64,000 nt of DNA from Blasia pusilla (taxonomy: Eukaryota): the NCBI GenBank assembly GCA_050084515.1, contig CM114271.1:49104001-49168000 (forward strand), written 5' to 3'. The notes beneath the pieces were generated by a model. The model ran no database searches, was not told the DNA's origin, and saw only the letters and a list, made by a program, of their open reading frames with translations. A program made the position numbers and the translations under genes. Within the stretch, counting starts at the first letter, position 1. Each line of letters opens with the position of its first letter. Below, in pieces: positions 5,161 to 59,092 of this stretch.

Positions 5161-6337
5161 AAATTTTAGTGAGAGCGCCAAAACCAGCCCGGAAAAAGAG
5201 GGACATCCCCTTACCAACTAAACTCACAATCTTTAGAGTCAAAATCAACATCTGAAATTATACGACTCCTTAAATGGGCTTAAAACACTAACATTTCCCC
5301 CAACTTGAGTCCTCCAAAACAGCCCATTGGCTTGGACATGCTACAAAACTATGCTTCCTAGAATAAAGAATTGCAGTACCTAAGAAAGGAAATTTATGAA
5401 GAACAAGTCGGACAATTTCCAAAGAAATGGAAAAGGTCTCTCCTACCACACTTTATTTATCCACACTCTCGTCTGCCCCCTCCTTCAAGTTTGACTTTGG
5501 ATTCCTATGCGGATGAATCATCCTAGTCACCACCACCCTCCTTAGTATGAAAAGACTATTAGCCCCATGCATACGTGTTACTAATGATGGGTGATTTGGA
5601 TTACCTATCATTAGCCACTGGTTGATACCAGTTGACCCCAATTAGATGAGCACAAACTCTGAATCAACCATCAATTCTTAACCATCCTTGACTTTTAGAA
5701 GCAATGCTTTCCTTATGCACTAACCTGAAAATTGAGAATTGCAACAAGACCCACTCGCAATCAAATTCATCACAACACAATATATGCATGCCTCTGAGAA
5801 GTGCACTTGTGCCCAATATTAGATACCCAGGCGCTACACCATTGCTGGGGGGCAATGGTGTGGCACCCCACCATCCCCAAAGGAGGTGATGTGCAAAATG
5901 TGAATGTTTTCATATAATGAAAATATTCGTATTGTAGAGTATGAATCATGATGTGCAGAATAGTTTTAGAGTAATCAGTTAGGACCCAGACAATTGACCG
6001 GTGGCCTTGCGGTTGGACATATATTTCTCTTTGTATCCATGGTGATACAACCATGAATCTGGAAATTTTTGGAGGTCCCCATCCTAGATTTAAGGGGGAG
6101 AATTACAACATTTACTCATACCAGATGCCGCAAAAATCTTCCGTCATATCTCATATTGAACTCACTCAGTCCCATGTGTTGGACTGGAAATTGCTTATCT
6201 ACATGTGGCGCTAGAATCATGTTGTGGACATTAAATTTATAAATCTCAATCTAAGGATGGATCTAATCAAAGTCATGGTAAAACACCCTGAACTGCAATT
6301 GAACTGTAAGACAAGTTAGTCTGTTTTGCGCAGCAGT

Positions 6338-7260
6338 CTATCGGAGCGATTCTACGACTCCTTGAATACTTTGCATAGCAACGAGCAGTCGGGTTTCCAC
6401 CAACACCTTCTCCCTGCGAATCTTCATCAACTTCAAGGTACTTGGCATTGATACGATTACCTTTTCATTGATGACCAAAACTTTCAAGGAGACGGGAATC
6501 AAAAGTTTAGAATACTTTGGCAAAGTGGCTTGCTTGGAAAGAAACATCAAGAGGAGTTCCACATTCTTCTCATCCCAGTTGGAGAGAGCACGTCCCAGGC
6601 CTTTCCAAACCACCAGCTCCTGCATGACTGCGACAAAAATCTTTGGATCTAAGGTGCACATCGCGGCGATGAGAGCGTCTTTGTACCGGAATTTCAGCAT
6701 AAACTTGTCATACTTCGTCATATTGGACTTCGTCAACTTGGCAAGGTAGAAATCTCCGTCTGAAGGTTTCTCTATGTGGCCACACAAAAATAGCGATGGT
6801 TTTTGGGGTTCAGCGGACGATCTCGTGCCCTCTCTGTGCTCATTTCGAGTCATGCTTGCAAGCGTCTCGCAGACAACACGAGAGCCCCTTCTTTGTCTAC
6901 CGGCCCTTTGACTCGATGTCGAATAGCAAGCATCCCAGATGACGAACCCATAGCCATGGTTCTACATTCAGGGGATACATCCATGGACAAGAGAGCATCC
7001 AAATACTTGGTTGGATGGGTGACCTTGAAGTGTTCCAATTCAAATACCTTACATGTCTATCCAAAGAAGCGGAGAGCAGGCGGGGCAAGGAATCAGCGCC
7101 GGCTGATCCGTCGAGAGAAGGAGTCATGAGACACAACTTAGTCATAGTCTTCTGGTGGCTCTCGATACTTTCCACCTATAACGACAAGTCTTGCATGAGA
7201 TCCTCTGGAACTATTCCCAATATCTAAGCCGTGTGATGACGGCAGAGGTGATAATCCTTT
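6338..7260 (-). pseudogene. UTP15: UTP15/SLOW WALKER1-like fragment (last WD40 repeats plus UTP15 C-terminal domain)
   Basis: ESHQKTMTKL...RLLSASLD, FKVTH...LLSMDVSPE..MAMG and YDKFMLKFRYKDAL..AVMQEL..LGRALS..LLMFLSKQATLPKY lie in three frames; N-terminal half is missing. Confidence 0.8.
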
Positions 7261-8919: not shown

Positions 8920-11830
8920 TTTCTACATGATAAAATTGGAAAATCATGATTTGTGGCTCTTGTAGGAATAGAAAAAAATTCATGACGATTTTTTTTTAAT
9001 GAAAAATTAAGGATCCTACCTCGCATCAAGATACGACGATATCTCGTCAACAAGGTCATTTGCATTGGATGTATCCATATCCTTTGATAACTTAAATGAC
9101 ACCGCATCAGACCCCTTAAAAAAATATTTGTATAAGTAATTGATGGCAGACACACTACTTGTGATTTACAAATTGATGTGACAATAAAAAAGGATGGATA
9201 ATATAGGATTGTAGGGCACAATCCAACGATTATCCAATGAATGTTCGCACTTGATTATCGCCCTCCCATTCTCCAATCTTAGAAAACACAGTAAGAAATC
9301 ATGAATCTATCAAGGTCATATGCCTTAGAGTAATATAAATATAAGCCAAGCTAAAAGGATCCTTACCTGCGAAAAATTGGATAGCCGTCTTCCGTCTCTA
9401 TAGTGTTGGCCGCAAAAGCTTTAGGATAGCCTCTTGTACAATTTTTTGTTTCCTTATCCATACATGGAGCATTAGGATTAAATGGTCCATATGGCTTATG
9501 AATCATACAATTAGTAACAGTAGAATACAACCTTGGATGGGTAGATTGATCAAGGATTTCTGCCGAAATAACATGATCATAATCTGAAGTGGTATGTGGT
9601 TTATCTTCACGACCTAATATAATAAGAACGTGCACATGTGGCAAACCTTTTTTTTGGAATTCCATCACATTAATGCATCCAACAACTTGACCCAATATCT
9701 GATTTTTTATGATAAGTCGTAGCAACTCCTTCTTCTTCTCAAAAACCCGCACAACCACATCCGCACGATCCGTAGCTGATTGACCTGGTAATAAGGCTAA
9801 TGTAATCTTCTCCCACTTTGGATTACATGTCATGGTCAAAAGGTAGTCATGCTTCCCCAAATGTCTTACAATTTCCATTACATCTTGATACAATTGATGC
9901 ATATGATGCGACCCTCCAATAAAAGAAGGTAATATAATGCGTCTCCCAAACCTTCGACTATCCACATCCTGTCGATGCAGAAGATCTTTCACAACTTGAT
10001 ATAATTTGGCCCTTAACTCCTTCTGATTTAAGCGAACCTAAGATAACCGTTGCATCTCTACAATGGCATAGAGATCAACCATGTATTCTTGAGTGAGTCA
10101 ACCAAACCGCAATAACCGATTGTTATCTTTGCCTCTAGCCCGTGTTTGAAGTCGAAAACATACAAATTGCAACGCCGTAACACTTTTTTGATTTCCTTTC
10201 CACAATACCATCACCATCAAATCGTTCCTCATCCATGCAATCTTCTGAAGGTTCAATGTGTTCCTCCTCGTGAATAATGCGGCCCAATCGTTGTGATTCT
10301 CTATAGCCTTCAATTCTTCCAAACGGTATTCGAGGATGCTAACTAGCTTCACCATAGATAAATAATAGAACAAAATATAATGGAATATATGCTTCATTGA
10401 GGTCAGAGATACGCCTCACTCCTCCTCCATATAGTCGTACAATGATATCATGATGGTCAACATATTCACTTCCATCACCCGGTAAAATAGCAGCAACCTC
10501 AAAAGCAGTTGGTAAGTTATAACGCTTTGCATGGAGCCCTCTCTTACTTGCTTTGAGGATAATCCACATATTAAGGGTCACTTGCTTCATACGCCATATC
10601 ACGAAAGATCTTCACATATGGATTGTATTCATGTAACATGTCTTGTAGCCCTGTTAGAATGTCAATATTAAGATGAGATGATCTAGACATAACTCTTCCA
10701 CAATTCCCCAATTCATTTGTAGTATTATGGATGTAGAGTTGAGCAAATTGGGGATGGCCGCCTATCTCATTTACATACACTCCGGTACAAGCAAGTTGGA
10801 GTGTAGAATTGTAAGCTCAAAAATGTGTAAGAAAATGATGATTTCTCGGACTAACACCCGAAATCAATGATTTCAAAAATGGAGGAGACGATTTCAAAAG
10901 GGGTAACTCTATTCTTCCATGGCCACAACACATGCCATACGGAGAATCACTAAACTTAGTGCCCCTGATGATTTCATATTTCCAATGCAAAGCTTGTCAT
11001 GATGGGCATATCTCTGTCATAGAACTTAATGTATGACGACCGTTGGTACGATTCAAACTCCTTTGTACTCGCAACTTCCTAATATCACTTTCTTGGAATT
11101 TGGTCTCTTGGCAAGATTGAGTAATGTATTCAATCTTCCAACCCTATTAACAGTAGACACCGGACGAATAATGGCGCTTTGTGGAGATAACACAACTCCA
11201 TCAATGGTAGAAGACACAAGATCTACTCCTGACCTTACTTCATCCCCCGCATGGGGGAATGTCTCAAAATTGTCGACAACATCATGGTCAACCGGAATGG
11301 AAAGAGTGGTAGGTAACTCAACTCGTGGTGTTACATAAGTAGTAGCCCTGCTCGGGGATATATTCTCGATAACTGCATGGAGTGCACTATCTGCTATACC
11401 AAGTCTTCTTTATTTTCTCCTACGTTACTCCATCCTCATTGAAAGGCCTGAGAAAACATTAACATATTATAATGAGCAGATAGAAATAAAAGATGAACAA
11501 TGAAGCGAATGATTTAGAGTAAGATAAGAAAAGTAAGATATATGTACCTCGAGAATTGACTATCAATAGTCATGAGGTCATTATTTTCCATAGTTGAAAT
11601 ACTCTCAACTACCAAAGTAGGCTCAACTTGAGCATTAAGCGCTTTCCTTCTTTTTCTATACTCTTGATAGTAACTCCTCTTTTTTTCTTTGAGAGCTTCC
11701 ATTTTATCAGCACGAATAACCCATTCTCGTTTTTGGGTTTCCCCGTGTAGAACCTTCCGAAAATCACGTATATTGACAAGATTCAATGGAATGGGAAGTT
11801 TGGAACAACAAATGAATGGTAGGAACAAAT
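8920..11830 (-). mobile_element. Helitron RepHel remnant (Rep region; helicase absent)
   Basis: Motifs PQFAQLYI, RYNLPTAFEVAAIL, TMTCNPKW, EFQKKGLPHVHVL, GYPIFRR, then after a GT-AG intron (9278-9366) LDNRWIVPYNP...YLYKYFFKG; many stops and frameshifts. Confidence 0.92.
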
Positions 11831-31099: not shown

Positions 31100-31670
31100 G
31101 GGTGCGGGTTGTTGATATGTGGGCCCTTACGGACATATAGAGTCCGTGATCGCTGACTTTGTTTGTGTGCAACCTTGACTACCACTTTTCGATATGCATT
31201 CAAACATTTGAAACAAGTGTAAGTAAATATCCCGTATGTAGGAAGTTTTGGCCTTCTTTCTAAACCCCTCGGAAATATATGAATGTGAATGAACTAATCA
31301 ACCAGATTTCCTTGAAATCTTGGCAAATCCAAAAGTGGTGAAATACTCTCAGAATTATGCAAACAACAAAATCAAGAGTTGGAATTTTGATATATGTTTG
31401 AAAGGAGCAAGAAAATTCTCTCTTCTTGCCTTGTGAAACAAAATATTCAATGCAGGCTTAGAGCGCGTCGGCATGGGCTACAACAAGAGCGAAGGGTTCT
31501 CAGATTGAGTGCGCATTCGGGTTGGCCAAGCTCGGATGTACTTTGCGGACGGGGCTAATTGAGGTGCGGGCCGCGGGTACGTACGTCCGCACGAATCCAT
31601 CTTAGGGAGGAATGTAAGTCCATGGACATGGACTTGTTCGCGGACATAGACTTTGTCCGTGTGCAACTTT
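31100..31670 (+). mobile_element. Two partial hAT-type MITE right ends
   Basis: GACTTTGT..GTGTGCAAC(C/T)TT motif ending at ~31177 and ~31670, as in the complete copies elsewhere in the window. Confidence 0.6.
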
Positions 31671-32299
31671 AATTACAAGAGTAGTGTCAAATTCAGGATT
31701 TGAGGCTCAATAATTTGTTTATTGTTATATAGGCATTACACCCGAATACTTCTCTATTCTTAGGTAAGGACAACTAGTGTAGCAATCCCACATGGCTATG
31801 GTTTGTGTAGTAAAGTGGAAACCACATTCTTATTTTAAATATAGCAACAATAGTGATGGCAGTAGTTTTTAAATTGGCCTAGAGCTAAGAAAAAGTGCAC
31901 CCACAACTATTGTGCCGAGAGGAGTGTGACCATGTTTACTAATTATGACAAGTCGTGCATTGTACATAGAGTGTTTGTAAAAAGAATGGAGATAACCTCA
32001 AATAGATATGATCCATCATCGAAGTTTGGTGACACCAAGGGTATGACAACATATTTCAAGAAGTGGTGTAATTTTCCAACTGCAAGAAGAACTACTATAA
32101 CAACTAACATTGGTGCTCACAAGATCAAGTAGATCGCATGGTCACCTATTCCTTGGTTGGAGTTAAACTTTTGAAGACTACATGTTTAAAGCTAACATAT
32201 AATAGGCTATTGACAAAGAAAATATGAAATTGAATGTCTACATTGAATATAACCAGGTGTGTTGCCCAATCACATTTAAAGTGAAGTGATAAGTTCTCA

Positions 32300-34450: not shown

Positions 34451-34509
34451 CATGAACCATCCCATGTACCTTCACTTCAAGGTTATAATTTGATCAAGAG
34501 CTACGATGT

Positions 34510-34800
34510 CTAGGATCTAGGGGTTAGGGTTTAGGATCTAAGGTGTATGGCTTAGGATTTTGGATCTTTGGTATATTGCTTAAGGTTTAGGGTTTGGGGT
34601 TTAGGGTCTAGATTTTAGGGTTTAGGGTCAATGGCTTAAGATTTAGGGTCTATGACTTTAAGTGAAGGTTTAGTGTGTAGGATTTACGATATAGATTTTA
34701 GTGTTTAAGCTCATAATATGGCTTAGGATGTTGTGTGTATGGCTTAGGGTTTAGACACTATAAAGGATATATGGTTTGGGACCTAGCATATCAGGTTTAG
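34510..34800 (+). repeat. Degenerate interstitial telomere-like (TTTAGGG) 7-mer array
   Basis: Repeated GGTTTAG/TTTAGGG units interspersed with variants. Confidence 0.75.
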
Positions 34801-34886: not shown

Positions 34887-35193
34887 CATGGTTGCATAAA
34901 AATGGATATGGACAGAAAAATTTGGATATGTCCATGGATATGGATTGCTGAATGTAAAGCCCATACTTATAGTTCATGGTAGAAGGCAAGGCAAGGGCAA
35001 GCGAGGCAATTAGGGGGAAGGGAGTTGAGGTGGGAGGAGGTAGAAATGAGAAAGTGCAAATCAATGAGGCAAGTGGGGGGATGAGAAAAAAGGGAGATAT
35101 GGGGCCCACATGGATAAATCCTTCTACATGACAAACGTAACTCACGGACATGGACATATCCGTGGACACGGACTTTGTCCATATGCAACCTTG
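34887..35193. mobile_element. hAT-type MITE
   Basis: Ends CATGGTTGCATA...TATGCAACCTTG; 8-bp TSD CAATTGAT/CAATTGAA. Confidence 0.85.
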
Positions 35194-38100
35194 CAATTGA
35201 AACCTTGAAGAGTAAGTCCCAAGTTTAGAGATGTGTATACTATCGATTATCAATTCTACTTTTACCGTTTGAGGAGAAATATACCATTAAATCGACATAT
35301 AATATGATTTATTTATTGTAGTGTGTGTTTACGAGTTCATGTAACTTAAAAGATTAAAAATTACAATAATTTCATATAAGATCATGCAATATGTGTAGAT
35401 ATAATTTAAACAACATATATTCTACATTTAGTGTCATCCAAGAAATCAGAGATGATCCAAGGTATTGAATATACAAAGAAACTTTAATTATATTGAATTT
35501 CAAGTATAATGTTAATAAGGTATTTTATGAAATAAAATGATGATTCACAATAAAATTAAAATTTTTAATAAAGATTGAGTAATGATATTGAACAGAATCT
35601 GATAGTACTAGATTAGCGCTAAAGATTATTCTAGACTTCATCAAATTAGCCATATCAATGGGGATACTCACTAGTCACCCTCCATTGCATATGTTGATTC
35701 AAAATTAGCAAAAGAAGCTACCATCGAGCTATGTTAACACGACATCATTTTTCACCAACATTCTTCTCCCATTTTTTTCAATCCCAATTTTGATCTCTTT
35801 TGCTTAGGGCAATGTTTCCTTATCCAAATGTATTCAATGGCCACCAATATTGAATTTTCAAATTATGTTGTGTATTAACTCCAACTAGAACTTGTCCCAT
35901 CGCCATATGATATTTTTTTCTTTCTTGTCTTGGTCTTATTATAACAAAGTTTTTGACATTGAAATCTAACATTTCACATTCTATTTCCTTTATTGGTAAT
36001 ATATCAAATCTTGGCCTTAATCTAATGGGACCATAACCATGATTTGGATTTCAAAGAATTCCATTTGCAAAGATAATAAGAACTTGAATGTTTTGTTTGG
36101 TTTAAGGCCAAAAGTTCTCCAATGTCTCTAAGAACAATGATGCAATGTCACTGGCTATCAACTTACTCTCATTATTCGTACAAGAATCTTTATTTCTTGT
36201 TTCTTAGTCATTTAATTGCATATTTTGTATCTTTTCCTCATGGTTTCTATGAGGAAAAAATCTATCCAATTCCTTAATTTTCTTTCTCCACTACCATGTT
36301 AGTTGGTGGAACTCCACCTTTGTGCTTCCAAAAGACTTTCTTTCCATCTTATCAAAGTAATCAATTTACTAAGCAATATCCAACTACAGATGTAGTAAAT
36401 TAGAATCGATGTCGCTTCTATATTTCATACCATTGATTTTTTTTTGTCTTAGGCCTGATGAAACCTTTCAAGTACTACTTAAGGAATACTTAAAATGTTC
36501 ACTTCACTAAAATCGACACGTCAAGAATGTCTTGAACCAATTGTTGTGCCGTATTTCGTAAAGTGGAAACTACTTTGCAAGATCTTTTAAGGTGTATGCA
36601 TTTTGTTGTTGCAAATTTTTAGATGGAGAAGGAATGATGAACCAGAAGAACCATGGAATCCTTAGGAAATCAATAGTCAAACATCCTATAATATTGGAAA
36701 TAATAACGTATGGACTAGAAACAATAAAAAAAAAGCATAGTTTCTTAACAATGTGAACGAACCGCTCACAAAAATTTCTCACTCATGTTTGACCCTCAAA
36801 TTTTAATATGTAAAGAAAGAAACTGAAAGTAAATGCATGCAGAGCTATAACCATGTGCTGTAAGGGCTCATAGCAATTCGAGGAGGTAGAATCGAAGGCA
36901 CACTTACACGAAAGCCTGTCATGCACAAAGATCTATATTCTTAGTGTCAATCTGACACTTTTGAATCATCCATATACTACTTTTAGATACCTAGATAAAC
37001 TCTATGATGAGATATACATACGAGAGGGATAGAGGTAGTAGAAGAAGATATTGAAAATGAGGCCTATTTATAAAGGTTGTAAAGATAGTAGACGCCAATG
37101 TGAACCTTATGCTTGGGATGGAATCTTATGAGTTGTTCCATTTCCTAATTTGATATGGGTTTCTAAAATTAGAGTTTGATAAGCTTATTTCAAATTCATC
37201 ATTAAAAATAAAAATTGATACATATATGTAATACTTTCTATACAAAAATAAATGCAAGCATCCTTACATGAGCGTTAGCTTATTCATTTTGATATCCCTC
37301 ATTATTATGAGAATATTTTTCGTATTACAACATCTTGGGACAAAACATGTTATAAGACTCATAAAATGAAAATAAATTCAAAAATGATTTTATTTTTTAA
37401 AATATATATTATCTTAATCATATATACTCATTTGTATTATTAATCTAGGGACCTTTCTAATATCTAGTGATAGATATGTAGTACAAAAGATAAGGAGAAA
37501 TATGAATCATGGTTCTTTAGGGATCTATTCCCATTCCTATGTTACTTGCAATAAAAGAGAGAATGATAGTTAATAGTGCATGTGATATCACGGTAATAAA
37601 TGCTCTTCATCAAAAGATATGTAGATTTTATAACAAAAGGTAGCTTGGACATCTAGGCCTTTATGAAATTTTTGTTATTAATTGAAAAAGTAAGGGTTGC
37701 TATGATAAGAAAATATCCATTGAAATAAGTTAAGTTTTTTAAAGAGATATAATAACTCCTTTTGTGAAAAGAACTAAGACTAGTCAATAAACTACATGTG
37801 GTTGTGAATGAATGGAAAATTTCTTGATTTTATGTATATTACAAAATTTACTTGAAAGAAATTACTTATCTAGAAATAACTTTATCAAATAATGAATCCT
37901 CATAACGTGATATAACGCATCTTTTTCCTTTCCAAGAGTTAGAATATTTTATAGGAAATTTTTTTTCTTAAATTTCAGGTGTCTTAACAATTTAATATGA
38001 GTTAATGAGATGAACATACATTGCACATGCATTACTATTTGATTATTAATATAATTTTCTGCTTTCTTTTTTTTCAAAAAATTTAAATACAAGGATTTCT

Positions 38101-42942: not shown

Positions 42943-43896
<954 letters not shown>

Positions 43897-43964: not shown

Positions 43965-44439
43965 CAAGATTGCATGGAAACAGATTTTTCTACCCATGAG
44001 ATGAAGATGGCCAGACATATCCACGGTCATGCCCAACGAGTCTCTTGCCTAGGTTTTTTTAGTATCCCAATTGGATGCTCATGCTTGGGACACGGGAATA
44101 GGTGTAGACTCTACTTAAGGGAGGCGGGTAGGGATCGAACGGATGTGCGGGCTATGAGCCCTTGTTTGGCCTGCAATGGCCCGCATAGGGCTCACGACTA
44201 GCCCACACTAGGCGGGGTGTGGGTCTTGCTGCATGCCTCTGTGGGCAAGGCACGGGGCTGAGTGCACACTAAAAAATGGGTGGCAAGAATGAGTGATGGA
44301 TTGCTAGCTAGACTGATGTGCGGATAGGCCAAAGTTGGGTCTACATTGCGGGCGGCTAGAACCCAGCTCTATACAGACATGTCTATCTTAGGGATGGATA
44401 TAAGTCCGCAAACATAGGCTTTGTCCATGTGCAACCTTG
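43965..44439. mobile_element. hAT-type MITE
   Basis: Ends CAAGATTGCA...TGCAACCTTG; 8-bp TSD ATATCCCT/ACATCCCC (two transitions). Confidence 0.75.
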
Positions 44440-44599
44440 ACATCCCCCAAACTCCCCCCTCATAGTGTACATAATCCGCAAGCAAGCTCACCATTTTAGG
44501 ATTTGGATTGTATCACTTTAGTGATGAATATGATACAAGACACATAGACAACAACTAGGTCTACCCTCACGACATGTCCGCCAAGAAAATATTTGGCCA

Positions 44600-47670: not shown

Positions 47671-49092
47671 CGCTAGTCAATCAGTCTTCTTCCTCTTGAA
47701 CGTGGCAAAGCCCTTGCCATTTCAAGCCTCTTCCTTTTCTTGTTTTTCCCCCTATTTTGGCATGAGCATAGACGATGGCATGGCAAAGAGGAGGGCTTTG
47801 AAAGTGGTTTGGGAAGACCACTTTCAAAGCCCTTTGGGTTTACCACCTCCATATGGTAAAACCAAAGGTAGGGATGGGTATGGCTAGCAAGGCAAAAAAA
47901 TGGCTCCATAAATGGAGTGAGGAAATTCGAGAGTAAGGGGCTTGAAGAGAATAGTTAGTGCCTTGGGTTGTCTTGTGAAATCTTAGTTGAAGGCGTTTCT
48001 TCACATAATCGTGCAGCATGTGTTCAAGAAATGCATGCTTGTGTGTGATGTGTGGGTGGATCGGACCAGCAATCTAAATATCATCAAGTCATCCAAAACA
48101 CAATTATGGTAGAGGTCCAAAATGGAGCTACAACTTCTCCTAAGTGCATGTAGACCATGATCAACATGTTTTCTTTGGATTGTCATCACCACATGATGAT
48201 AGAGGCCCACAAGGAATTATAGGGGGCTTTTGAGTCAGAGGAGGATCACGAGGCATGGTTGTTGGCTTTAGAAACACCTACCAACTATAATCGAGCTTCA
48301 TGGGTGTCAATCCTACGGATGGAGGTACTAGTTGGAGGCTCGCGCAGAAAGCAAGTGGACTAATAGCGGTTGGTGGAAGCATGGTATTTGACTCAAATGC
48401 CAAAGGGGACACATTCCTTAGTCACGGAGGAGAGGAGGCATTTTAACATGCCTTTATGATTATCTATTATCTTACATTACTGCCCTCAGAATGTAGGGAT
48501 AGTTTTTTGTATTATAGAATACTTCACTAATTATGTGGGTGCCTTGTGCACTTTACAAAGTGTATTGAGTTATGACTTCTCAAGTTGTGGATGATGTGGG
48601 ATAGTGTTGAGAGACATGAGATGATGTATTTTCCAATCAAGGATGTATTAGCATCCAAGGTCAGTTCTTGAAACTTTAATAGTCCATGTAGTGTTCTCCA
48701 ATTTATTTCTTTCAATAAAGTTTTTAACTACACTTTCCCCTTTATGGCGTAGCATGATTTGTCGCATCCCAATGATGCCATAGTGAAGGAGGAGCGATGA
48801 CCGGCACACGCGCCCATGTTGATCGGCTCACATCTACATCTGGGAATGGATCAAGTTTTCGGAGGAGGGGACGATTTGTGTCATGCGCATACCTATCGCT
48901 ACATAACATACATCGCTGGTCACATCTACACCACACAACACCGATCTTCCCCACACACGGGTCGATCCACACATGTACAAAAATCAACTTGTACATATAC
49001 ATGGAGATTACACAACCGCCCCCCTAGCTGGCAGTTGGATCCCCCCAACTCCAGATAGAAAAAATCACATCTCTCTGACATGACCTACTACC

Positions 49093-49231
49093 CTATACAC
49101 ATCTCGGACACATCCATCGTCCCGTGGGAACCACATCAAGAGGGGGTCAGACATGACATATGCCACCCTCGAGAACAACCATCACATACCAACATGGTGG
49201 CTGCACCCCTCGTAGATCCACATAACATACA
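49093..49231 (-). pseudogene. PHD finger at the integrase C-terminus
   Basis: CMLC...MLVCDGCSRGWHMSCLTP/LDVVPTGRWMCPRC gives a full C4HC3 pattern across one frameshift. Confidence 0.9.
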
Positions 49232-49239
49232 CCTTAACC

Positions 49240-50450
49240 CTGCAGGTACCACTTCCAAGCTCGGATCCACTGTCCCGTCTACGTTTGGAAGATGACATGG
49301 CGCACAATTGCGCACATGATCCTTCCAAACCATACCATCCCGTCCCTCCAACATGAAGACTTCGGTCGGTAATACCTTGCGCATACGTAGGATCGTGCGC
49401 CCTGCAGTGACATCTAGCGTCGTGGGTGCCGCCTACTGTAAATACATGTAATCTCCAAGATGAAACCTCCTAATCCCTGGACGATAACCTCCTCCACGAA
49501 TGGTCGCATACCTCAATGTATCTCTATGCTAAGCAATAGCTAAGTTCTCAAAGGCCATGGGCATAACTCTACGAAAAACCTCCACCCTCTGAGAACATGC
49601 TTGTACCCATACATCTGGATCATCAAGATCTAACACCTCCTCCATGTCACGTCGAATTGCTGCAAGTAAATCTGGCTCTCTTCCAAAGAGCAAAAAGTAT
49701 GGTGAAAATGACGCCAAGGATGCTTGTCGACTAAAGCGATAACCCATAGCCAACCATGGGAACTATAAGTCCCACTCCCTCAACTGTCCCCGTTGCAAGC
49801 CATACTTGCGCACAATCCTCTCTTCACTGTCTGTACCACTCTCTTCGCCAACCCATCCGCTCAGGATGATCTCTGGACGTTGTATAGTGATCTATCAGTG
49901 CCTGATCACACAAGGCCTGAAACTCTCCCCTGAACTCGATACCCTGGTCAGTCAATACCTCCGCCGATGCACCAAAGTGACTAAGCACATGATCTAGAAT
50001 GCATAAGTTGTTCCCTCATTTGCCTTGTCCGATAGTGCCACCAACTCTATCCACTTGGAGAAATGCTCCACCATGACCAACACGTACCTATGATGACGCC
50101 CCGTCAATGACAAAGGTCCTCGCAAAGTCTAAACTCCACCAATAACCTAAACCCATAATTGGCAAAGGATGTAGTTGCGGAGTGGGAGCATTGAAGGATG
50201 CTCGCACTCTGTCACATACCATACATCTGGCCACAAGCTGCTGTACCCCAGTATGCATGCCGCACCACCAATATTGAATCTGGAGTAAGCTGTAAGTACG
50301 CTTCACTCCAAAATGTCCCAACTCATCATGGGCATGTCGCACTACACGTGCTCGCTGGGAAGGATGAGGTACCACTCGTATCCTACCATCTCCCCATACC
50401 CGCAAAATGTGAGTCCCCTCCCACCTGAACCTCCTGGCTCTCTGTAGGAT
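49240..50450 (-). pseudogene. Gypsy integrase (H2C2 zinc finger plus core)
   Basis: HAHDELGHFG...YWW...CMVC, WSLDF, FSPYFLLFGREP; several frameshifts. Confidence 0.92.
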
Positions 50451-50717
50451 CTGATCCCGCTCCCTAGCACTCAATGTGCTCGCTATGACGCCAATGCGCA
50501 AGAACTCCACAACCTCCACGTCGTCATGGATATCACGGCCACCTGTCGCCTCCTTACTGACCTTCGGATCCAAAGACTCATCATCCAATCCCACCATTGG
50601 AGTCATCACCTGTGGTTGACCTACCATAGTCAACCAACAAAGATAGGCAGATGCATGCCAACCGGGCACCATCTCCTCATCACTCTCTCCGTGCCATCGA
50701 GCTTTTGTGTCATCTCT

Positions 50718-51140
50718 CTAACTCGAACATGGATTACGAATCAACCCATCTGCATCTTGGTTCAGCCAACCTGGCCTATGAACCACCTCAAACTCATACT
50801 CCTGTAGTAATAGAGCCCATCTGGCAAGCTTTCCCGTAAGCTTGTCGGACTCCATCAACCACCTCAACGGTTGATGATCAGTGATAAGTGTGAAAGGGTT
50901 GCCGAATAAATAGCACCTGAGATGTGCCATGGCCCACACTGTAGCCAAGCACTCTCCCTCGTAGGAGCTATACTTTGCCTTTGCAATGTTGTTTGGTTGG
51001 TTCGCGTAAGCCACAACGAACTCCCTCTCCTTGTCATCCCTCTGAGTAAGCACTGCTCTTAGACCCAACATGCTCCAATCCGTATGTAACTGGAATGGGC
51101 GATCCCTAACCGGTCTCTGTAAAATGGGTGAGGACGTCAA
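50718..51140 (-). pseudogene. Ty3-type RNase H
   Basis: FQLHTDWS, YSSYEGECLA, FTLITDHQPL, LARWALLLQEY. Confidence 0.93.
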
Positions 51141-51249
51141 CTTGTCCTTGAGCTCCTAAAATGCTTGCTCCAGATCATCTCCCGACAACCAAACCTGATC
51201 AAGTCTCGTCAACAAGGTCAAAGACTTTGCGATCGTACTAAAACCCTTG

Positions 51250-52050
51250 ACATACCGTCGATAGAAGTTCGCCAGTCCAAGAAATGATCGGACTCAACTC
51301 ACATCTGTAGGGCATGGAATCTGCGCAATAGCCTCTACCTTCGTCTGCTGAACGCCTAACCCACTCGGGTATATGGTGTGTCCCAAATACTCAATCTCCT
51401 CCTGAAAGAATCTGCACTAGCATGGATGTAACTTAGGTCCATGTAACTGCAATTGTCGAAACACCTCCTCCAAGTGTCACTCATGCTTCTCAACCGTGGA
51501 AATAAAGATAAGAATATCATCTATGTAACATCGTACAAAATCCAAGCCAGCCAAAATCCTATCCATCACTCTCTGAAACTCTGCAGGCGCGTTCTTCAAC
51601 CCAAATGGTAAGAACCGCCACAGTTACAAGCAATCTCTCCCGAACCGATCTATCCCCCATAATGTTGTCTTCTCCCTGTCCTCCAACCTGATAGGAAGTT
51701 GATGATAGCCAACACGGAGATCTAAAGTATTGAAGATCTTTGCATGCCCTATCGCATCAAAGATCTCCTCAGGAGTAGGCATGGCGTACCGATCTGACCT
51801 CGTATGTCGGTTGATAGGACGGTAATCTCCACACATCTGCCTAACTGTCCAATTGCCATACATATCCTTCTTCTTCGGCATGACTGTGGCAGATGCATAC
51901 TCCCCATGTGATAACTCCACAAGTCCTGCCTCCAACAAGTCCTGACTCCTGCTCTGAATCAAGGCTCGCTCCATATCGAATACCAGAGGGTCGATTTAAA
52001 GATCGGTGTATCACTAGCCAACTCAATCCGTATCTCGGGACCCTTCAGCG
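51250..52050 (-). pseudogene. Reverse transcriptase
   Basis: MCGDYRPIN, LDLRVGYHQ, PFGLKNAP, and YIDD at ~51516-51527; in-frame stops. Confidence 0.95.
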
Positions 52051-52480
52051 TACCCAAGTCTCTCATATTGAAGGCAAAACAACTGACATGCCCTCTCAAA
52101 AACGTATGAACTCGCCGTCGCTCTCCTCCTATCAACTTGAGACCTATCACAGGCTCCCAAATCTCCATCGTGACCTCACTTGGAGAGGACGCAACCTCCG
52201 GCTTTGGTTGCTATGTAGCAACCCTAACCACCTCCGCAACACCAACTCCACTCTGACTTCCTACACCATGCTCCACATCCAAAAAATGAACATGTGCTAC
52301 TCTGGCCGCCTTCGCACTCTCTGCTCGAACGACGTCCCAGGAAGTCCATGGTTGCCTATCTCTCCTCGTCTCGCCCCCAGCCAATGCCTGTACAAACCCT
52401 ATAGGCAATGGTCCAACTCGTGGACGTGACGGCATGGATGACACTCGCGTCCACCTCTGCTCAGCCATACCTAGGCTGAC

Positions 52481-53480
52481 TATCCATGTGAGACAATTGA
52501 GGTCCATTGCCTTCCCCAACACCTATCTTCGGGATGCCTCAGTCATCCCTGGCACCGCCGTAGTACTGATAGCGAACCCCATGGCGGGCTCGTGCTCATC
52601 TGTTGTAGGCTCCTCCAATGCTCCAGTCACCTCATCCCAAATCATGCCTAGCCTTCCCCGACGAAAGGCATGGGATGTTGCGAAGCTCACCAACGTATGT
52701 AAGGCTACCCTCAACTCCCCCACCCTAATGGCCATCGCCAACGGTGGTCTATCATCCCATGTCACCACATGAGATCAACGCCTTGAGTCCTAAATAGCAT
52801 CCACTGTGAGATGTGGTGCTCTCTGGACTCCATCGTATGCTCGACCCAGTACCTCTCATGGTATCAGGTTCGTCCACCATAGTAGTGGACAATGGGCACG
52901 TGATCCAACTCTCGCTGCATCTAACAACATAGCAGGTCCCAACAAGGACCTCACTTGATGCACACTCGTCATCACACATGCACGAGTGTCTCCCAAAAAT
53001 AACACGTTCTACAAAATATACGTTGGAGAACATGTTTGACTCTCTGGATCCTGCAATCCAAATCTTGCAACATCTCCCAAAACTTCCCTGACCTCGGATC
53101 CTACAATCCAAATCTCGCAACACCTCCCAAAACATCCCTAACCTCAGATCATGCAATCCAAATCCTCGGCCAGGTGATGAATGGCCCTGACATGTCCATC
53201 CAACAATCACCAAATGAATGGTGCCAACTCTATCCAGATCCTGCGCCCCCACCAAAGAGATGTCGGCGGGTAGTGTATGCTGATATCCCCGAACGGCAGA
53301 TATCGGCAACAACTCAGGATACCTCTGGACCAATCTCGCCACGTGACGTAATGATACTCACCACGCGGTCTCATCTCTCTCCACATAAAGGTACTGATGC
53401 ACCCGTATACCCGCCTGCAATATTGCAGCCAATCCGGTGCTAATCCCTCCGAAGAGATCTAACACCCTAACACCCTCCTC
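52481..53480 (-). pseudogene. DNMT3-like C5-cytosine DNA methyltransferase domain inside pol
   Basis: Motif I VLDLFGGI, II YVERD, III ADI, IV VIVGWTCQG, VI YIL*NV, VIII LLDAARVGSRAHCPLLWWTNL, IX EHEPAMGF, X RR*VLGKAM, in DNMT3 order and spacing. Confidence 0.9.
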
Positions 53481-53762
53481 TAGGGAATGCCACACAATAG
53501 GTGTGGTATTTAGTGGGGTCAACGTCTCCACTCCAAGAGCCCAATCGCCACGTGACTCTTGCTGCTCCAGGATAAAAGCATGACTCCACGCTTGCCTCAC
53601 GAGGTCGTCGACACTCCTCTGTAGCTCTCGAGTCGTACCCCACAATGGTGAAGAGGTCTTGCCAACATGGGAAGAGACACCTGCCATGGCATGTCTCTCC
53701 ATTGGACTATCCACTACTAGGACATCCTCCGCATAAGCGTTTCCCTCCAAAAACTTTCCTGG

Positions 53763-54239
53763 CTAGCTAACACTACCTGTGAAAGCTGCCAACAGGGTCA
53801 CAGACTCGCCTCGTGATCGACCACCTTGTCCCGCAAACTGCACGGATAACTGACTCATCCGCCCGTCACCTGACCGCCACCTTGGCTGATAAGCAACGGT
53901 CTCCTCCCAGAAGTCAATGATGAATCCTAGGGGGTATAACACTGTACTCCCCACCAACACATCGTACGACTCAACTGGTATCGTAATCGTGCGTGTGCAC
54001 ACCATAGCACTATCCGTCGCATGCTCATGCTGGACTTTGACAACTATCTTCTGTTGAGTCATATATTGCCTGGGTGACACGCCCTCAATCGAGGTCTGTA
54101 TCTGGAAGGGACAAGGCTCAATGTCGGCCTTCCGTAACCCCAACGCTAAACACGCCGCCTTCCCTAACATCAAGGGTTGCGCTCCCGAAACAAGTAGGAC
54201 GCGCTGCGGGTGGTATAATGTCCCCGTCGGACTAACCAA
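53763..54239 (-). pseudogene. Retroviral-type aspartic protease
   Basis: RVLLVSGA (LLDSGA with Asp to Val) and YDVLVG motif. Confidence 0.8.
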
Positions 54240-55356
54240 GCAAAATACTCCAGCTCACTTATCCAATAACACTACTCCAGGTGTCACCACTCCTTGCTCT
54301 ATGGCCAGTCGAGCTGGCATATCTACCAATTTTGCCGCCGCCGCATGCCATGACTCTATGGGGAACGTCATGAGCACCGGCTCTGAGGGCAAGTCCTCCA
54401 CCTCCTCAACTACCTCTAAACAAGAAGCAGTCACCTCTCCATGCTCACACAACATGGCGGCGAGCCGGAACACCTCAGTTGGTCCAACTCCCAACGTCGC
54501 CAACTCTATGGCGGAAAATAGTGGAGTCTTACTCACTTTGGTGGCCACCTCCAACACTATGGTCGACACTGACTCCACTCGAGCCGGCATAGGAGTTGTC
54601 ACTCCAACTCCTTGTGATGTTGACGCACCTGCCTGAGCTATAGGCATCGCTGGTCGTCGAGGCACCATCGATGGTGTGTAGTGCCTCCGACAATATGAAT
54701 GATTGTAGAACCCTGGCCTGCCGCCCATCGGTTCCCTCTGGAGGGTCAATCTCAACTCCACCTCTCGATGGCTCGGTGCCTCTCGCAGTACCCCGAGTCA
54801 CCACTGCATCTGCCTCAACCTGGGCTGCACTACACATAAACCCCATACTGGCGAGATCCTCACCCGGTTACTTCCCGTGGTTGATCTATTTTCCTGTTTT
54901 CGCCCTGACCATCCTCAGGGCCCAAGGGGACCAGACCATTGGGAAAGGGATAGGTCCGGAGGAGGCCCCCAGCGTGGGCCAAAGGTCGCTCCGGCGTCAA
55001 TAGCTTTATCTTTTTTAAGCAATAAAGGCTCTTGACAAACAAGCAAGTATCCACAAAAGGACCTTTCCATATAGAGCGTGTCTTAAACTAATTTCTGTGT
55101 TTCCTTATTACTGTTTTAAATCCACCTTTGGTAGGCTTGCCCCAAGGTGATACCGAAGGTCTACCTCCTAGATATACTACGGAAAAAAATTGTCGAAATA
55201 CTGAACATGGTGGTGAAACTCTATTGCGCGAGTAGCATGGGGCACGTGGAATCACGTATGAAGTAGCTCAAGGAAGGTTAGAGCCATACTAGCTGCTCGC
55301 GGCTCCGTGCCTTCCCTGAGCTGCATCATCGTCATGGCATCAATCCTCTGCTCCAA

Positions 55357-56659
55357 CTAATCGATACGTGAGAGAAGTGCCAGCTCTGGTGCTCCTGCTC
55401 CATCTTGTCTAGCTGGTGGTGGTCCTCTACCACCACGTCTAGGAAGAACTCCCTGACCTCCTCCATGACGACCGCCCCCAGGCCCTCGGCCTACCTCTGG
55501 ACGTGACTCTCGGAGAAGGTCAAAACACCTATCCCTAGTGTGACCATATCTGTGGCAATAGTCACACTCGTGCCATGGTGGGGCCATCCTCTGTGGCTCT
55601 TGAGCAATCGAAGGCGCTCGTGGTCCTCTCCCATGCTGTGGGCAGTCTCTCTGCCTATGGGCCCCTCCACACGTCCAACAAGACCACATTGGTCCCTGTT
55701 GGGCAACATATGTAGGTACGGGTCGTTGCCTCATATGCTCACGATACCCGACCTGCTCTCTAGGCACACCGGCCTGTTCCCGTGGTACTAGTGCTTGCTG
55801 TGGCACCTGTGGGGTCACCGTCGCTTGTGGACCCGTCGACTCTCAAGAAAATCCAGCGGTCACTACCTGCTCCTCACTCATGTTGAGCTCAATACGCTCA
55901 GACAACTCAAAGACCACCTTCAATGTGGGCTTTCGCTGTGTGAATCAGCACCGCATCTCGGACTCTCCTCCGTAGTTCTCGATCCAAAACCCTGTACCAA
56001 TACTAGATTGACTGCGCCTCAGTCACTCCATGTGTAGCAATGATCAGCCTCTTCATGCGTGTGAATGCCTCTCTCAGACTCTCACCCGATCGTCGCTGAA
56101 AATCCTGTAGATTCTTCAGCTTGTCGGTGCATACACCCTGGTAGCTCTTCCCCAACTGTCGGTAGAACTCCACTATGGGGCTGAAGCTGGGTGGCCCTCT
56201 ACCACCAGAGGTCTCTGCCATATCGCTTGTCTCACTGCCCTTCTCTCCTTCTAGTCTCCAGGCTGATGGTGTGGGTCTCTCTCCTCTCACAATCCCATCA
56301 TATGCCTCGTGACCACTAGTGGACACATACCCTAGAGCCCAATACATCCTCCAAGCATCGATCTCTACTGAATATAGTGATCGAAACTCCATCTAGTCAT
56401 CCATCGAAGGACCCTCCAAGTGCTGGAACAACCTCTTCCATGCCATGAAAGGGTTGAACCGTGTCGGGGTCCGTATCTCCTAGAAGTCGCACCACGTGTC
56501 GAACTCTTGGATAAAATCATCTAAGTCGATGGTGCCCATTGCACCCAAGAAACAACGCATGCCCCGATGGCCCATGTCGTCCATCTCCTGCCAAGTGATA
56601 CTGCCTCCGTCTACAATCTCCTCACCAAACTCGGTGTCTAGTGATGACGATCCAGCCAT
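55357..56659 (-). pseudogene. Gag with two zinc knuckles
   Basis: FQRRSGESLREA (major-homology-like) plus CWTCGGAHRQRDC and CDYCHRYGHTRDRC; in-frame stops. Confidence 0.85.
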
Positions 56660-58803
56660 GGATGGATGTCGAGGTATCTCCTTACTCGTAACCCCTCAAT
56701 ATCTCACTCCACTCCGTGTCACTCCACTACTACTACTCGCACTATCCCGTTCTTTCGAACCCTAGAAGAAAGCCGTGATGATAACCTTGTCTCACCCGCT
56801 CAAGCACTCAGACTCACCGAGAGTCTCCCACACTCCTCACTAGCTCACCTATGCTAACATCAATCCCGTGATGACATACCCGGCCTCACGCACACTCAAC
56901 ACTCGGGCTCACCATGAGCCTCCCAACTGACTCACCTAACCTAGCGACACTCTCTCGGGTCATACACGTGATCCCTACTGGGCAACTGCCGTATATCCAC
57001 CAACATGCTATACATGAAAAGAATCTACACTCGTCACCATCATTGCACCCACCTAGCACTAGCTACTACTCGATACCCAGCTTTCTCAATCTCACAGGAC
57101 AAGTGCGGGAAAAGGGACTCGAATGGGTAACCTGATCACACCCTCCAACCTACTTCATCGTCAACACGCACTCCCCCATGTGACACGGCAACCTCATGAT
57201 TGGCAAACTCCCGTCGCAAATCCCATCCACGCTTGCAAATCACCAAATGCAGAAACGAGCTCCCATTGCACAACTCGCCTCAACCACGTCCAATTGCTCA
57301 ACCTCGTAGCCTGAGTCAACCTGGTTTGGCTCCACTCCTACCACGTACGCACTGTCCGATCACATCAACATGACCCCGACCACATTTGACCTTGCCCGAC
57401 CACATCCGGACTCTCAACCATGTAGCTCAACATCATCCACGTCCGCTATCCAACTATGTAGGTCACTTACCACGTCGGTATCCTCACCGCCACCACGTTA
57501 CCTAAATGGGGGGCCTTACGGCCTCCCCAAAGTGCGGGAAAGGGGGTGCGTCTCGCACCCCCTCCGCCTCCGCACTCCACATCTTTTCCGCCTCCGCGCT
57601 TGGCTGCTTCCGCCTCCTCTACGCCCTAAACCTAGCCGCGCCTAGCCCTAGCCGTCCTTGCAACCCTAGCCTTGGCGGCTACAAACTCTCAACGTTTCCT
57701 TTCTACACTCCCGTTGTGCGCCATTCTCTCGACGCTCCAACACTCTCCGTTGCACCCGAACGCTCTTGCGTAACCCCCACTCTGTTGTTGTCCCTCGTCA
57801 ACCTGCACCCAAAAAATCTGAGAAAAATGGACAACGCTTCCGCCCACGACCTTTCGAACAGAAAAATGACCAACACCCGCAACACACGCGTCTCCAGGGG
57901 CTCCCGACCAAGGCAACTCGCTTGCCTACCTGCAAACAACGAATTCCCACCAGCCCCCTGACATCTTTCTCATGTAAAAATAAAGAGTAGTAAAAATGGC
58001 ACACCCGGCCTTAAAATCCACTGCTTAATCTACATCGGCATATCGAGCCTCGTCCACCCTGTGCTATCAAGGAATCCGGATGCTAGCACCCTAGTCCTAT
58101 CTCACACATATACAAGAGAGGTGCTCCAACGGCCCAACATGAGAAAGATGGCTTAGGAAAGACATCTTCCTCTCTTATATAGGGTTGGGAAGAGCCAAAA
58201 GGCTCTTCCCCCAAAAATAGCCATCCCCTTGGTAACCTACGCGCACGGGTTACCAGGGGCGGGTGACCTGGTCAACAAGTCACCCGGCTGTGAAAGACCT
58301 CAACATGAAAGTTGTCAGAAATGATGTTCTTGACACAATAGACCTATTCTCAGCCTCATCCGACATCATGGGACAAAGTTACACTCAAGATAGTCTGCTG
58401 GCTCCTACGCCCTATCCACGATAGATCTCGGCCTATCGGCTACTCAGATGTGACATTTGAATGATGGATCCTAGAATAAGGAGGAGGAGGAGGAGGGCAA
58501 GGGGGATGAGGAGATTCTCCTTATAGTGTCTAGCCGCTCTAAGGTAGAGTAGGAGGTACCCATTGGATAGTTCTTCTAGTGGAAGCCCTAGGCCTATTAG
58601 CAATGGGCGTTGTAATATGGCATACGACCAAAATAGTCCTATCAAGGTAGCTATTGGTAGTGACAAGATGCATGCAAAAACAACGTCCATTGGGACTTTT
58701 TCATGTACTAGACCTTCTACGCATTCGACATTGTTGTTAGTGACCCCCTGAGTGCAAAAAGGAAACATAGATCCAAAGCATAGGAGGCCCATCCCATCAT
58801 TTA

Positions 58804-59092
58804 CAAGTTTGCACACGGAAAAAATCTGTGTATGTGGACATGTCCATGTCTACAGATTTCTGTCCGTCCCTAGGACGGACATGATCGTGTGGGCCTGGGT
58901 ACCTGCACCTAAGCCCATAGCGTAGACTAGCTTAGGTTGGCTGAGCTCGCATTGGTTTTTTGGTCAAGCGTAGCCCGCACCAGCCCGTAGCAAGTCCACA
59001 ACCAGGCCAACTATGGGCTCTGAGGACTAAGAAGGGGGATGCGGGTACGCGGGCGGCATGTTCATGGACTTGTCCATTTCCGTGCAACCTTG
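58804..59092. mobile_element. hAT-type MITE
   Basis: Ends CAAGTTTGCAC...GTGCAACCTTG; 8-bp TSD ATCATTTA/ATTATTTG (two transitions). Confidence 0.78.

Follow-up and report, generated by a model that had tools for sequence, protein, structure and literature searches.

Insertions of an apparently self-primed Gypsy-Dnmt3 family in Blasia pusilla point to an integration site inside U3

The genome of Blasia pusilla carries a family of Ty3/Gypsy elements whose usual form is B-internal-PPT-A-GC-B-A (repeat B, about 480 bp; repeat A, 138 bp; PPT, polypurine tract), set between 4-bp duplications. The insertion ends derive from a palindrome inside A-GC-B, GACA-GC-TGTC, and a terminal B|A seam unites the two predicted cDNA ends, sometimes retaining letters of the PPT or of the primer-binding site (PBS). 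We consider it probable that this is a self-primed Ty3/Gypsy-Dnmt3 element whose integrase attachment site (att) no longer lies at the cDNA ends but within U3, where it forms a ready-made palindromic junction, CA-GC-TG; the DDE integrase would open the upstream internal site once the cDNA ends had been joined, probably into a 2-LTR circle.

The window copy and its family

The window is a 64,000-nucleotide stretch of contig CM114271.1. The original prediction placed in it an element with ends TTTG|TGTCA...TGACA|TTTG at 48879/58455 and no LTR pair. These ends were borne out, with TTTG target-site duplications at 48875..48878 and 58456..58459, and no direct or long inverted repeat links them (best self-BLAST match 26 nt, E 0.08). 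End-versus-end alignment scores of this copy fell inside the shuffled range, and a hidden, decayed LTR pair was ruled out, as nothing rose above shuffled background.

All parts of the copy lie on the minus strand. Repeat B (57976..58455, 480 bp) opens with the att half-site TGTCACA, comprises the remainder of U3, the promoter, R and U5, and in most copies occurs both at the 5' end and in the 3' unit. It includes the TATA box TATATAA (58175..58181) and, about 25 nt past it at the predicted RNA 5' end, the predicted self-primer CATCTTTCTCATGT (58137..58150). The PBS ACATGAGAAAGATG (57962..57975) adjoins the end of B and fixes the right cDNA end. Next come a broken region with two Cys/His knuckles (55357..56659; a weak zinc-finger match only, E 0.007), which from its position and motif we take to be gag; an aspartic-protease-like region with an altered active-site motif (approximately 53900..54250); a frameshifted C5 cytosine methyltransferase domain recognized by motifs and homologues (approximately 52490..53470), between protease and reverse transcriptase; reverse transcriptase and RNase H (50796..51872; RVT_1 E 3e-23, RT_RNaseH E 1e-29); the integrase H2C2 zinc domain and DDE core, split across frames (49850..50363, lower bound approximate; Integrase_H2C2 E 9e-15); and a degraded PHD finger at the integrase C-terminus (49139..49231; Pfam PHD E 3e-4), whose frame stops about 210 bp short of the copy's end, as predicted. 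The PPT AGGGGGGCG (49017..49025), identically positioned in relatives L186 and L181, fixes the left cDNA end, the start of A. Repeat A (48879..49016, 138 bp), with which U3 of the putative reverse-transcription LTR opens, begins directly after it and ends with the att half-site CATGACA (most copies have CACGACA); GC-B-A follows in the majority of other copies. The predicted PPT, TATA box and 9-bp subterminal inverted match were all found; family 3 and L181 retain the last only in part, and it is not evident in L186 or L190. The element had also been called complete, which holds for its domains, every one of which was found, but not for its frames, which carry many stops and frameshifts. The methyltransferase domain and the self-primer did not figure in that prediction.

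The domain order, gag and then PR-RT-RNase H-integrase, is that of Ty3/Gypsy, as are the DDE integrase with its 4-bp target duplication (4-5 bp in that group) and the placing of a PBS, here of the self-primer type, after the 5' repeat and a PPT before the 3' repeat. The integrase residues D, D and E are invariant in five of five aligned sequences, and other copies gave matches to rve (E 3e-14) and Pfam PHD (E 4e-11) in L095 and to PF00145 (E 1.4e-8) in L140; relative L181 matched Asp_protease_2 (E 2e-4). The pol region encodes both a C5 cytosine methyltransferase, as in Gypsy-Dnmt3 elements, and a PHD finger, which stands where Tcn1 and Tf1/Sushi elements have a chromodomain. Named relatives in the protein homologue search were liverwort and Sphagnum proteins; none of the 32 matches was from Klebsormidium. 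No Pfam match to a tyrosine recombinase appeared in the window copy's three sense frames or in four ORFs of intact relatives.

The original prediction took the missing repeat pair for a family property, which the other copies contradict. Matches to the 3' end run on into GC-B in 21 of the 30 best-matching genome copies, and genome-wide the internal att and B follow 303 of 504 exact PPT-A matches. A direct repeat longer than 80 bp in other copies, which the prediction had itself named as grounds for its refutation, is therefore present: B, 480 bp, at both ends in a split layout. Two identical complete TG...CA LTRs were not found, the 5' end being B and the 3' end A-GC-B-A or A. The window copy represents a minority form, B-internal-A, which lacks R at the 3' side and so presumably cannot be the replicating one. 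The signature of the mirror form, B|A-GC-B-int-A, gave three matches, all reassigned to the common form with an extended B, which leaves none for the mirror form against 156 for the common form. Repeat B by itself has candidate matches in the thousands across the genome.

Duplications around the whole B...B|A unit were exact in 16 of 23 both-ended copies and had at most one mismatch in 21. A matching duplication was missing in two of the 23 both-ended common-form copies and in one of five window-form copies; it was exact in four of five B-int-A copies and in all three B|A solos. The 5' end was not within the 10 kb taken for 9/20 copies of one set and 3/8 window-type copies. Tracing 18 copies from the 5' end yielded ten of the common form, two deleted B...A copies with exact duplications and six unassigned. 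Subfamily 2 had a 5' B in 2/10 loci, and those pairs were left out of duplication scoring; the family 3 data comprise nine stretches. A1 and A2, and likewise B1 and B2, carry common element-specific variants (permutation p 0.004, and 0/5000).

The second predicted family member, bounded by AAGG|TGTC...GACA|AAGG, was confirmed at its ends and proved to be an internally deleted subfamily-2 copy of B...A form (42943..43896, minus strand), consisting of B, a methyltransferase fragment, PPT and A, with an AAGG duplication and its PBS lost. The methyltransferase fragment and PPT rule it out as a solo LTR. Its PBS-deleting junction was unique among the 40 best-scoring of 1899 candidates, and its other deletion junction was common to the remaining 39 of those 40.

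Priming signals, internal att and terminal seam

The reverse-transcription LTR is inferred to be A-GC-B, which starts directly after the PPT and stops directly before the 14-nt primer site; its termini carry no integrase signal. The primer site is complementary to sequence just past the TATA box, which at the level of sequence is the self-priming arrangement of Tcn1 and Tf1/Sushi. This match spans 14-17 bp and differs in sequence among family 1/2, family 3, L186 and L181, with pairing compensated across these four sequence types; a match of at least 14 bp arose in 0/300 shuffles. Because the pairing is compensated, self-priming of the minus strand appears likely. In relative L211 the best match was 10 bp. 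Priming by tRNA was set aside, the self-complement appearing to explain the site after B fully.

All 29 junctions selected by similarity have a 2-nt att spacer, which reads GC or its C-to-T/G-to-A decay products. Relatives L186, L181 and L190 keep the internal att, as does L211 (67% GC) in the variant GTCA-GC-TGTC. In family 1, subfamily 2, family 3 (often with one extra A) and L186, the seam joins the last base ahead of the PBS to the first one past the PPT. Among the first 100 of 636 listed seams, 80 had exactly the standard length and 20 departed from it; extra letters there, ACA (three seams), A (one) and G (two), were adjoining PBS or PPT letters. Longer PPT remnants were present at the seams of L014, C4:26685249, L153 and L155, and the L014 seam also holds filler letters. 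The seam of L061 was resected, shortening A to 29 bp; that of L142 (L063) has a 5-nt microhomology and that of L141 (L062) none. In three copies the second B runs on for 43-150 nt of 5' leader until A starts, as expected from mis-priming plus de novo joining. Three 'junction' rows were spurious PPT matches and were left out of the seam set.

Among the 52 metagenome loci, most of them too short or degraded, only L186 was an entire element with its flanking DNA. L181, L190 and L211 resemble collapsed assemblies, in which att is visible and the integrated form is not. Viral contigs gave one weak, unrelated match only. In RNA run X8, 72-73 family-3-type reads span A-GC-B; since most are less than 95% alike to the copy used for comparison and the run was picked by its species label, they are evidence for relatives only. 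One read and one contig in X8 join the B end to the A start, which genomic B|A seams explain equally well.

Proposed mechanism and its alternatives

Transcription would begin in the 5' B, about 25-30 nt past its TATA box, and proceed through the internal region, A and the GC spacer into the second B; sense transcription across att was seen in RNA of a relative. The RNA 5' end would pair with the PBS after B and prime the minus strand in Tf1-like fashion, while the PPT would prime the plus strand. This should yield a linear cDNA of the ordinary two-LTR kind, with A-GC-B as LTR and TTTT instead of CA at its right end. End-joining of both termini would produce a 2-LTR circle, leaving the B|A seam that is observed. 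The DDE integrase would nick each strand of the internal palindrome at the 3' side of its CA, giving recessed CA-3' ends with 2-nt overhangs; these would resemble processed retroviral ends and insert with the 4-bp duplication seen in the copies. Almost exclusive use of the upstream-LTR site would yield B-int-A-GC-B-A, the sole transcribable form with R at both ends. The window form, B-int-A, would be a dead-end by-product of A-by-A recombination after insertion, of a 1-LTR circle or of cutting at both sites, with the B|A solos as its counterpart; these three origins look alike in sequence. The evidence for the mechanism is genome anatomy, read from insertions. A symmetric 2-LTR circle has two identical sites and the mirror form was not found, so an extra assumption is needed; the upstream LTR may become double-stranded first, nearness to the seam may matter, or the element's DNMT may methylate one site. 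The 80 length-exact seams would fit a templated join too.

The original prediction had suggested a circular or tandem intermediate. A circular or end-joined intermediate fits the internal palindromic att and the B|A seam with its PPT and PBS remnants; the premise of that suggestion, that direct repeats are lacking, was wrong, most copies having split direct repeats. The chances seem even that across this Ty3 lineage, from this genome to distant GC-rich relatives, the 2-LTR circle is obligatory, with att inside U3, ends joined by host repair, opening in IS3 style by the DDE enzyme and the site picked by the element's own DNMT or by the order of second-strand synthesis.

The same products and repair-like seams, including the resected L061 seam, would arise if integrase cut the upstream internal site of a linear cDNA and inserted the new ends, leaving host repair to seal the original ends later as a chromosomal break. 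Prior ligation and a free circle would then be unnecessary, yet every insertion would entail a double-strand break, while four fifths of those 100 seams have exactly the standard length and the majority of duplications are undamaged; nor does this course by itself explain the missing mirror form, and we regard it as unlikely. The precision of the seams could also be the element's own work. Were reverse transcriptase to jump on the plus strand from the B end to the A start, generating a longer-than-unit or nicked circular cDNA for integrase to open at the internal site, the microhomology at the L142 (L063) seam would be understandable, and a one-directional jump could account for the single permutation. 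The filler letters at L014 and the PPT remnants look instead like repair of imperfect ends, and the L141 (L062) seam lacks microhomology, which makes such a jump distinctly improbable.

A split-direct-repeat cycle of DIRS/Ngaro type, in which the RNA holds both junctions, the internal A-GC-B splints a single-stranded cDNA circle and a DDE integrase has replaced the tyrosine recombinase, would suit the layout, formally A-coding-B-A-B and termed DIRS-like in the part of PMC5890265 consulted, as well as the transcription of the internal att in relatives. We hold it to be slightly less probable still: in several unrelated sequence types the seam falls at the ends that PBS and PPT define, it retains remnants of either, the second B is sometimes extended with the same element's leader, a self-primer directly after B would bypass A2, and 4-bp duplications are present. 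Cut-and-paste movement of B-int-A copies as DNA through their TGTC...GACA ends, the Ginger-like mobilisation also raised by the original prediction, is very improbable. TGT...ACA ends, 4-bp duplications, a Gypsy-type integrase and the existence of B-int-A and short deleted copies with exact duplications speak for it, but RT and RNase H are conserved, the self-primer/PBS pair and PPT are kept across families, repeat pairs are re-templated within each element, the terminal inverted repeats measure just 4-5 bp, and the short copy's PBS-less junction recurs nowhere else among the 40 candidates scored of 1899.

Known systems and significance

Ginger DNA transposons have an integrase-like transposase without RT and long terminal inverted repeats, and at IS3/IS911 circle junctions a DDE enzyme works on ends that, in the IS3 family, abut across a spacer of 2-3 bp. 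The Blasia family resembles Ginger in its TGT...ACA ends and 4-bp duplications; RT and signals for retro-priming set it apart from both systems, and nothing indicates that it amplifies as DNA. SymbioDIRS-Dnmt3, PAT and Ngaro are DIRS-order elements with split direct repeats, an order not known to show integrase-type target duplication. With them the Blasia family has in common the A-coding-B-A-B layout and a probable circular precursor, whereas it possesses a DDE integrase instead of a tyrosine recombinase, 4-bp duplications, a PPT, a self-primer and gag-PR-RT-RH-INT order.

The closest known element, by its published description, is KnitGypsy-Dnmt3 of Klebsormidium nitens, for which the Fig. 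4c legend of de Mendoza et al. 2018 (PMC5890265) gives DIRS-type repeats (A-coding-B-A-B) and Gypsy domains; both it and the Blasia family thus combine that layout with a Gypsy pol containing a C5 methyltransferase. The searched passages of that paper mention no primer, att, target-site duplication, mechanism or PHD for KnitGypsy-Dnmt3. Tf1/Sushi and the plant Tcn1 chromoviruses, as portrayed in passages of PMC6317226, have the same Ty3 domain order and self-prime from 5' LTR sequence complementary to the PBS; the Blasia family differs in its PHD in place of the chromodomain, added DNMT, internal att and lack of a TG...CA LTR pair. Gypsy-7a_cRei of Chlamydomonas is likewise a Gypsy element with a PHD; no DNMT is listed for it, and its legend describes LTR 'subparts', the left LTR being without the last 8 bp of the right (bioRxiv 10.1101/2022.06.16.496473). 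It might represent this permutation with a very short A.

According to the portions of PMC11054761 and PMC4372172 consulted, linear cDNA is the accepted integrase substrate of retroviruses and LTR retrotransposons, 2-LTR circles are mostly deemed dead ends, and for retroviruses the circle-precursor (Panganiban-Temin) model was overturned (PMC11054761). Integrases can nevertheless cut a palindromic circle junction, as described for foamy virus and HIV-1 2-LTR circles (PMC1180852, PMC4372172), and there too cleavage of a CA-nn-TG junction gives processed ends. In those viruses the junction consists of the ligated cDNA ends and is a side route. The junction of the Blasia family is part of U3 and present in the RNA, is distinct from the place where the cDNA ends are ligated, and appears to offer the sole route. 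We found no published account of the proposed mechanism.

LTR-pair finders will probably mis-bound elements of the Blasia type, and methyltransferase-carrying Gypsy elements prove abundant in a land-plant genome. In the Blasia family the circle-junction route seems to have become constitutive, and such a route would be a natural, high-copy test of the old circle model, with predictions at the level of oligonucleotides. The mechanism would also account for the DIRS-like layout of Gypsy-Dnmt3 elements; if it is true, an ordinary LTR cycle would have given rise to that layout by convergence, perhaps a hint at how split direct repeats originate.

The window copy and the usual layout of its family

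The element at window positions 48879-58455 lies on the minus strand, and sequence inspection confirmed the boundaries and TTTG duplication described in the original prediction. Likewise, the short copy, an internally deleted subfamily-2 copy (42943-43896, minus strand), carries its own duplication, AAGG. Self-comparison revealed no terminal direct repeat in the window copy, and its end-versus-end scores equaled those of shuffled controls. The element had been called a complete gag-pol element, which holds for its domains (gag-like, protease-like, C5 methyltransferase, RT, RNase H, integrase, and PHD) but not for its reading frames, which are broken; Pfam matches to PF00145, rve, and PHD were obtained from less damaged copies. 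Most named homologues of the methyltransferase region came from Marchantia and Calypogeia (54-72% identity), with one from Sphagnum.

We denote the first 480 sense bases (57976-58455) B and the last 138 (48879-49016) A. The 390-Mb genome held 2478 candidate matches for the first 242 bases of the element and 3938 for the last 256. Among 30 loci similar to the 3' end, 21 continued past A with two bases and then B, usually with A again, and at nine, including the window copy, the element ended at A. Genome-wide, at least 303 of 504 exact matches to the polypurine tract (PPT) and A ran on into B, a lower bound because mutated sites escape exact matching. Four-base duplications enclosed B-int-A-GC-B-A exactly in 16 of 23 both-ended copies (21 with at most one mismatch), B-int-A in 4 of 5 copies other than the window copy, and the solo form B|A in 3 of 3. 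These locus counts and duplications establish that the window layout, B-int-A, is genuine and recurs in a minority of copies. In the usual form the direct repeats are split, and the lack of a repeat pair is thus not the family property it was taken for. The two B copies, B1 and B2, diverged by 4.6% on average (range 0.8-10%; n = 20 elements); the copies sampled are therefore not young.

DNA-level mobilisation, which had also been proposed, found no support: the short-copy junction that removes the primer-binding site (PBS) was unique to it among 40 scored places (of 1899 candidates). The other deletion junction of the short copy (43120-43318), which links a DNMT fragment with the 3' region, was common to the remaining 39, and this recurrence suggests that its type is an amplified non-autonomous derivative devoid of RT and integrase. 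A long (CT)n microsatellite (43505-43616) is expanded in the short copy, between the TATA box and the self-primer region.

Predicted cDNA ends and two kinds of junction

The start of A directly adjoins the PPT, and the 14 nt right after the 5' B are exactly complementary to another 14 nt lying about 25 nt past the TATA box. This exact self-primer/PBS pair was kept in 24 of 30 5' ends examined; another element family of the same genome (family 3) and the metagenome relatives L186 and L181 differ from it in primer sequence, and their two corresponding sites are perfectly complementary over 16-17 bp. None of 300 shuffled controls reached 14 bp. Ends set by the PBS and PPT give both cDNA termini the same LTR in the standard LTR cycle, which, given these positions, would place A-GC-B at each cDNA end. 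The right cDNA end is predicted to be a T run, without the CA required by integrase. Both repeat pairs behave as if re-templated every cycle: one A variant, found in 10 and 11 of 26 elements at the two A positions, was common to both A copies in 9, and within-element sharing of B minority alleles was 118 observed versus 34.6 expected. Self-priming of the same type is described for Tf1/Sushi and Tcn1 (PMC6317226).

The A-GC-B junction is a palindrome, GACA-GC-TGTC (hereafter att), whose halves are the exact ends of all integrated forms. In all 29 junctions selected by similarity, the two halves are separated by 2 nt. The palindrome is also present in L186, L181, and L190; the metagenome relative L211 (67% GC), whose methyltransferase segment is 32% identical, carries a version differing by one change. 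Coarse RNA comparisons, informative for relatives only, gave 72-73 family-3-type reads crossing A-GC-B in a run found by species label (X8) and strongly sense-biased element coverage in two runs. A 9-bp subterminal inverted match (48919-48927 and 58446-58454), only partly kept in relatives, would lie on either side of att within the A-GC-B unit, where it might fold into a hairpin when the nucleic acid is single-stranded.

At the terminal B|A seam, the right cDNA end predicted above meets the left one. Among the first 100 listed of 636 exact-anchor seams, 80 had the standard length and six contained additional letters (A, ACA, or G) that match the PBS or PPT next to them; two ACA seams are neighbours and may represent one event. 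Longer PPT remnants were found at L014, C4:26685249, L153, and L155. Three copies had 43-150 nt of 5' leader inserted between the second B and A, and in one of these three A was shortened to 29 bp. Metagenome contig L186 holds the complete arrangement, including an AAGG duplication.

Proposed integration route

The simplest account of this anatomy is that the cDNA ends would be joined and that integrase would open the internal palindrome, giving ends of the same form as processed retroviral ends. All five sequences in the alignment keep the integrase D, D, E residues. Pfam gave no tyrosine recombinase match in three sense frames of the window copy or in four ORFs of intact relatives. Opening the upstream site would yield B-int-A-GC-B-A, the sole form with R at both transcript ends; opening the downstream site would yield the mirror form, B|A-GC-B-int-A. 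With matched patterns, we found 0 mirror forms versus 156 of the common form. Were the mirror form made equally often and then collapsed by recombination, B-int-A would be expected to be at least as numerous as the common form; the counts are contrary. We infer that an upstream bias may stem from the upstream LTR being completed as a duplex first, from its proximity to the seam, or from CpG methylation beside the site. B-int-A itself could arise if the two A repeats recombined, if a 1-LTR circle was the precursor, or if both sites were cut, and RT should not be able to replicate it.

We consider integration through the internal att very probable, whichever way the ends are joined. Joining could precede insertion, in a circle, or follow it, by chromosomal repair, or be done by RT itself; insertion data alone do not tell these three apart. 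We lean modestly toward the circle. For foamy virus and HIV-1, integrase cleavage at the circle junction has been reported (PMC1180852 and PMC4372172); linear DNA is historically the established retroviral integration precursor (PMC11054761).

Relatives, neighboring features, and precedents

Family 3 combines an unrelated B (~500 bp) with a near-identical A end and att (L159:1700-2244, minus strand; L100, L120, L156, L062, L091, and L128) and is the type most evident among RNA loose ends. At three further genome loci (L024, L095, and L148), att leads into ATGACCATA, similar to the beginning of B in L186, hinting at a possible fourth family in Blasia. In metagenome contigs L181, L190, L211, and L212, the gag-PR-DNMT and RT-RH-INT-PHD frames are open; those of L181 and L190 lie in one frame, with a single stop codon between them. 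L211 has 133-bp identical ends and is therefore circular or a collapsed repeat.

Elsewhere in the window, the minus strand carries a Helitron fragment (9363-10037; Helitron_like_N, E 2e-35), CACTA-type transposase fragments (2660-5165; Transposase_21, E 2e-30; weak DUF4216), and an intronless UTP15 C-terminal fragment (6338-6961; E 2e-23), possibly a pseudogene or captured piece. A degenerate interstitial 7-mer array (34504-34752) resembles the TTTAGGG repeats of plant telomeres. A dispersed short repeat with inverted matches occurs at 31596-31673, 35147-35200, 44403-44441, and 58797-58879.

Among known elements, KnitGypsy-Dnmt3 has, according to a figure legend (PMC5890265), repeats arranged as in DIRS elements, a layout that the usual Blasia form shares. 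The legend for Chlamydomonas Gypsy-7a_cRei (bioRxiv 10.1101/2022.06.16.496473) gives a left LTR without the last 8 bp of the right one, and a 2026 preprint mentions streptophyte Gypsy-DNMT3 in passing. A full-text search, with subscription journals and Repbase outside its scope, returned no title or abstract on an internal att, self-priming, or a circular precursor for Gypsy-Dnmt3 elements. Both the family and its layout were known in part; the anatomy that accounts for the layout, with the integration route it would imply, appears to be new.
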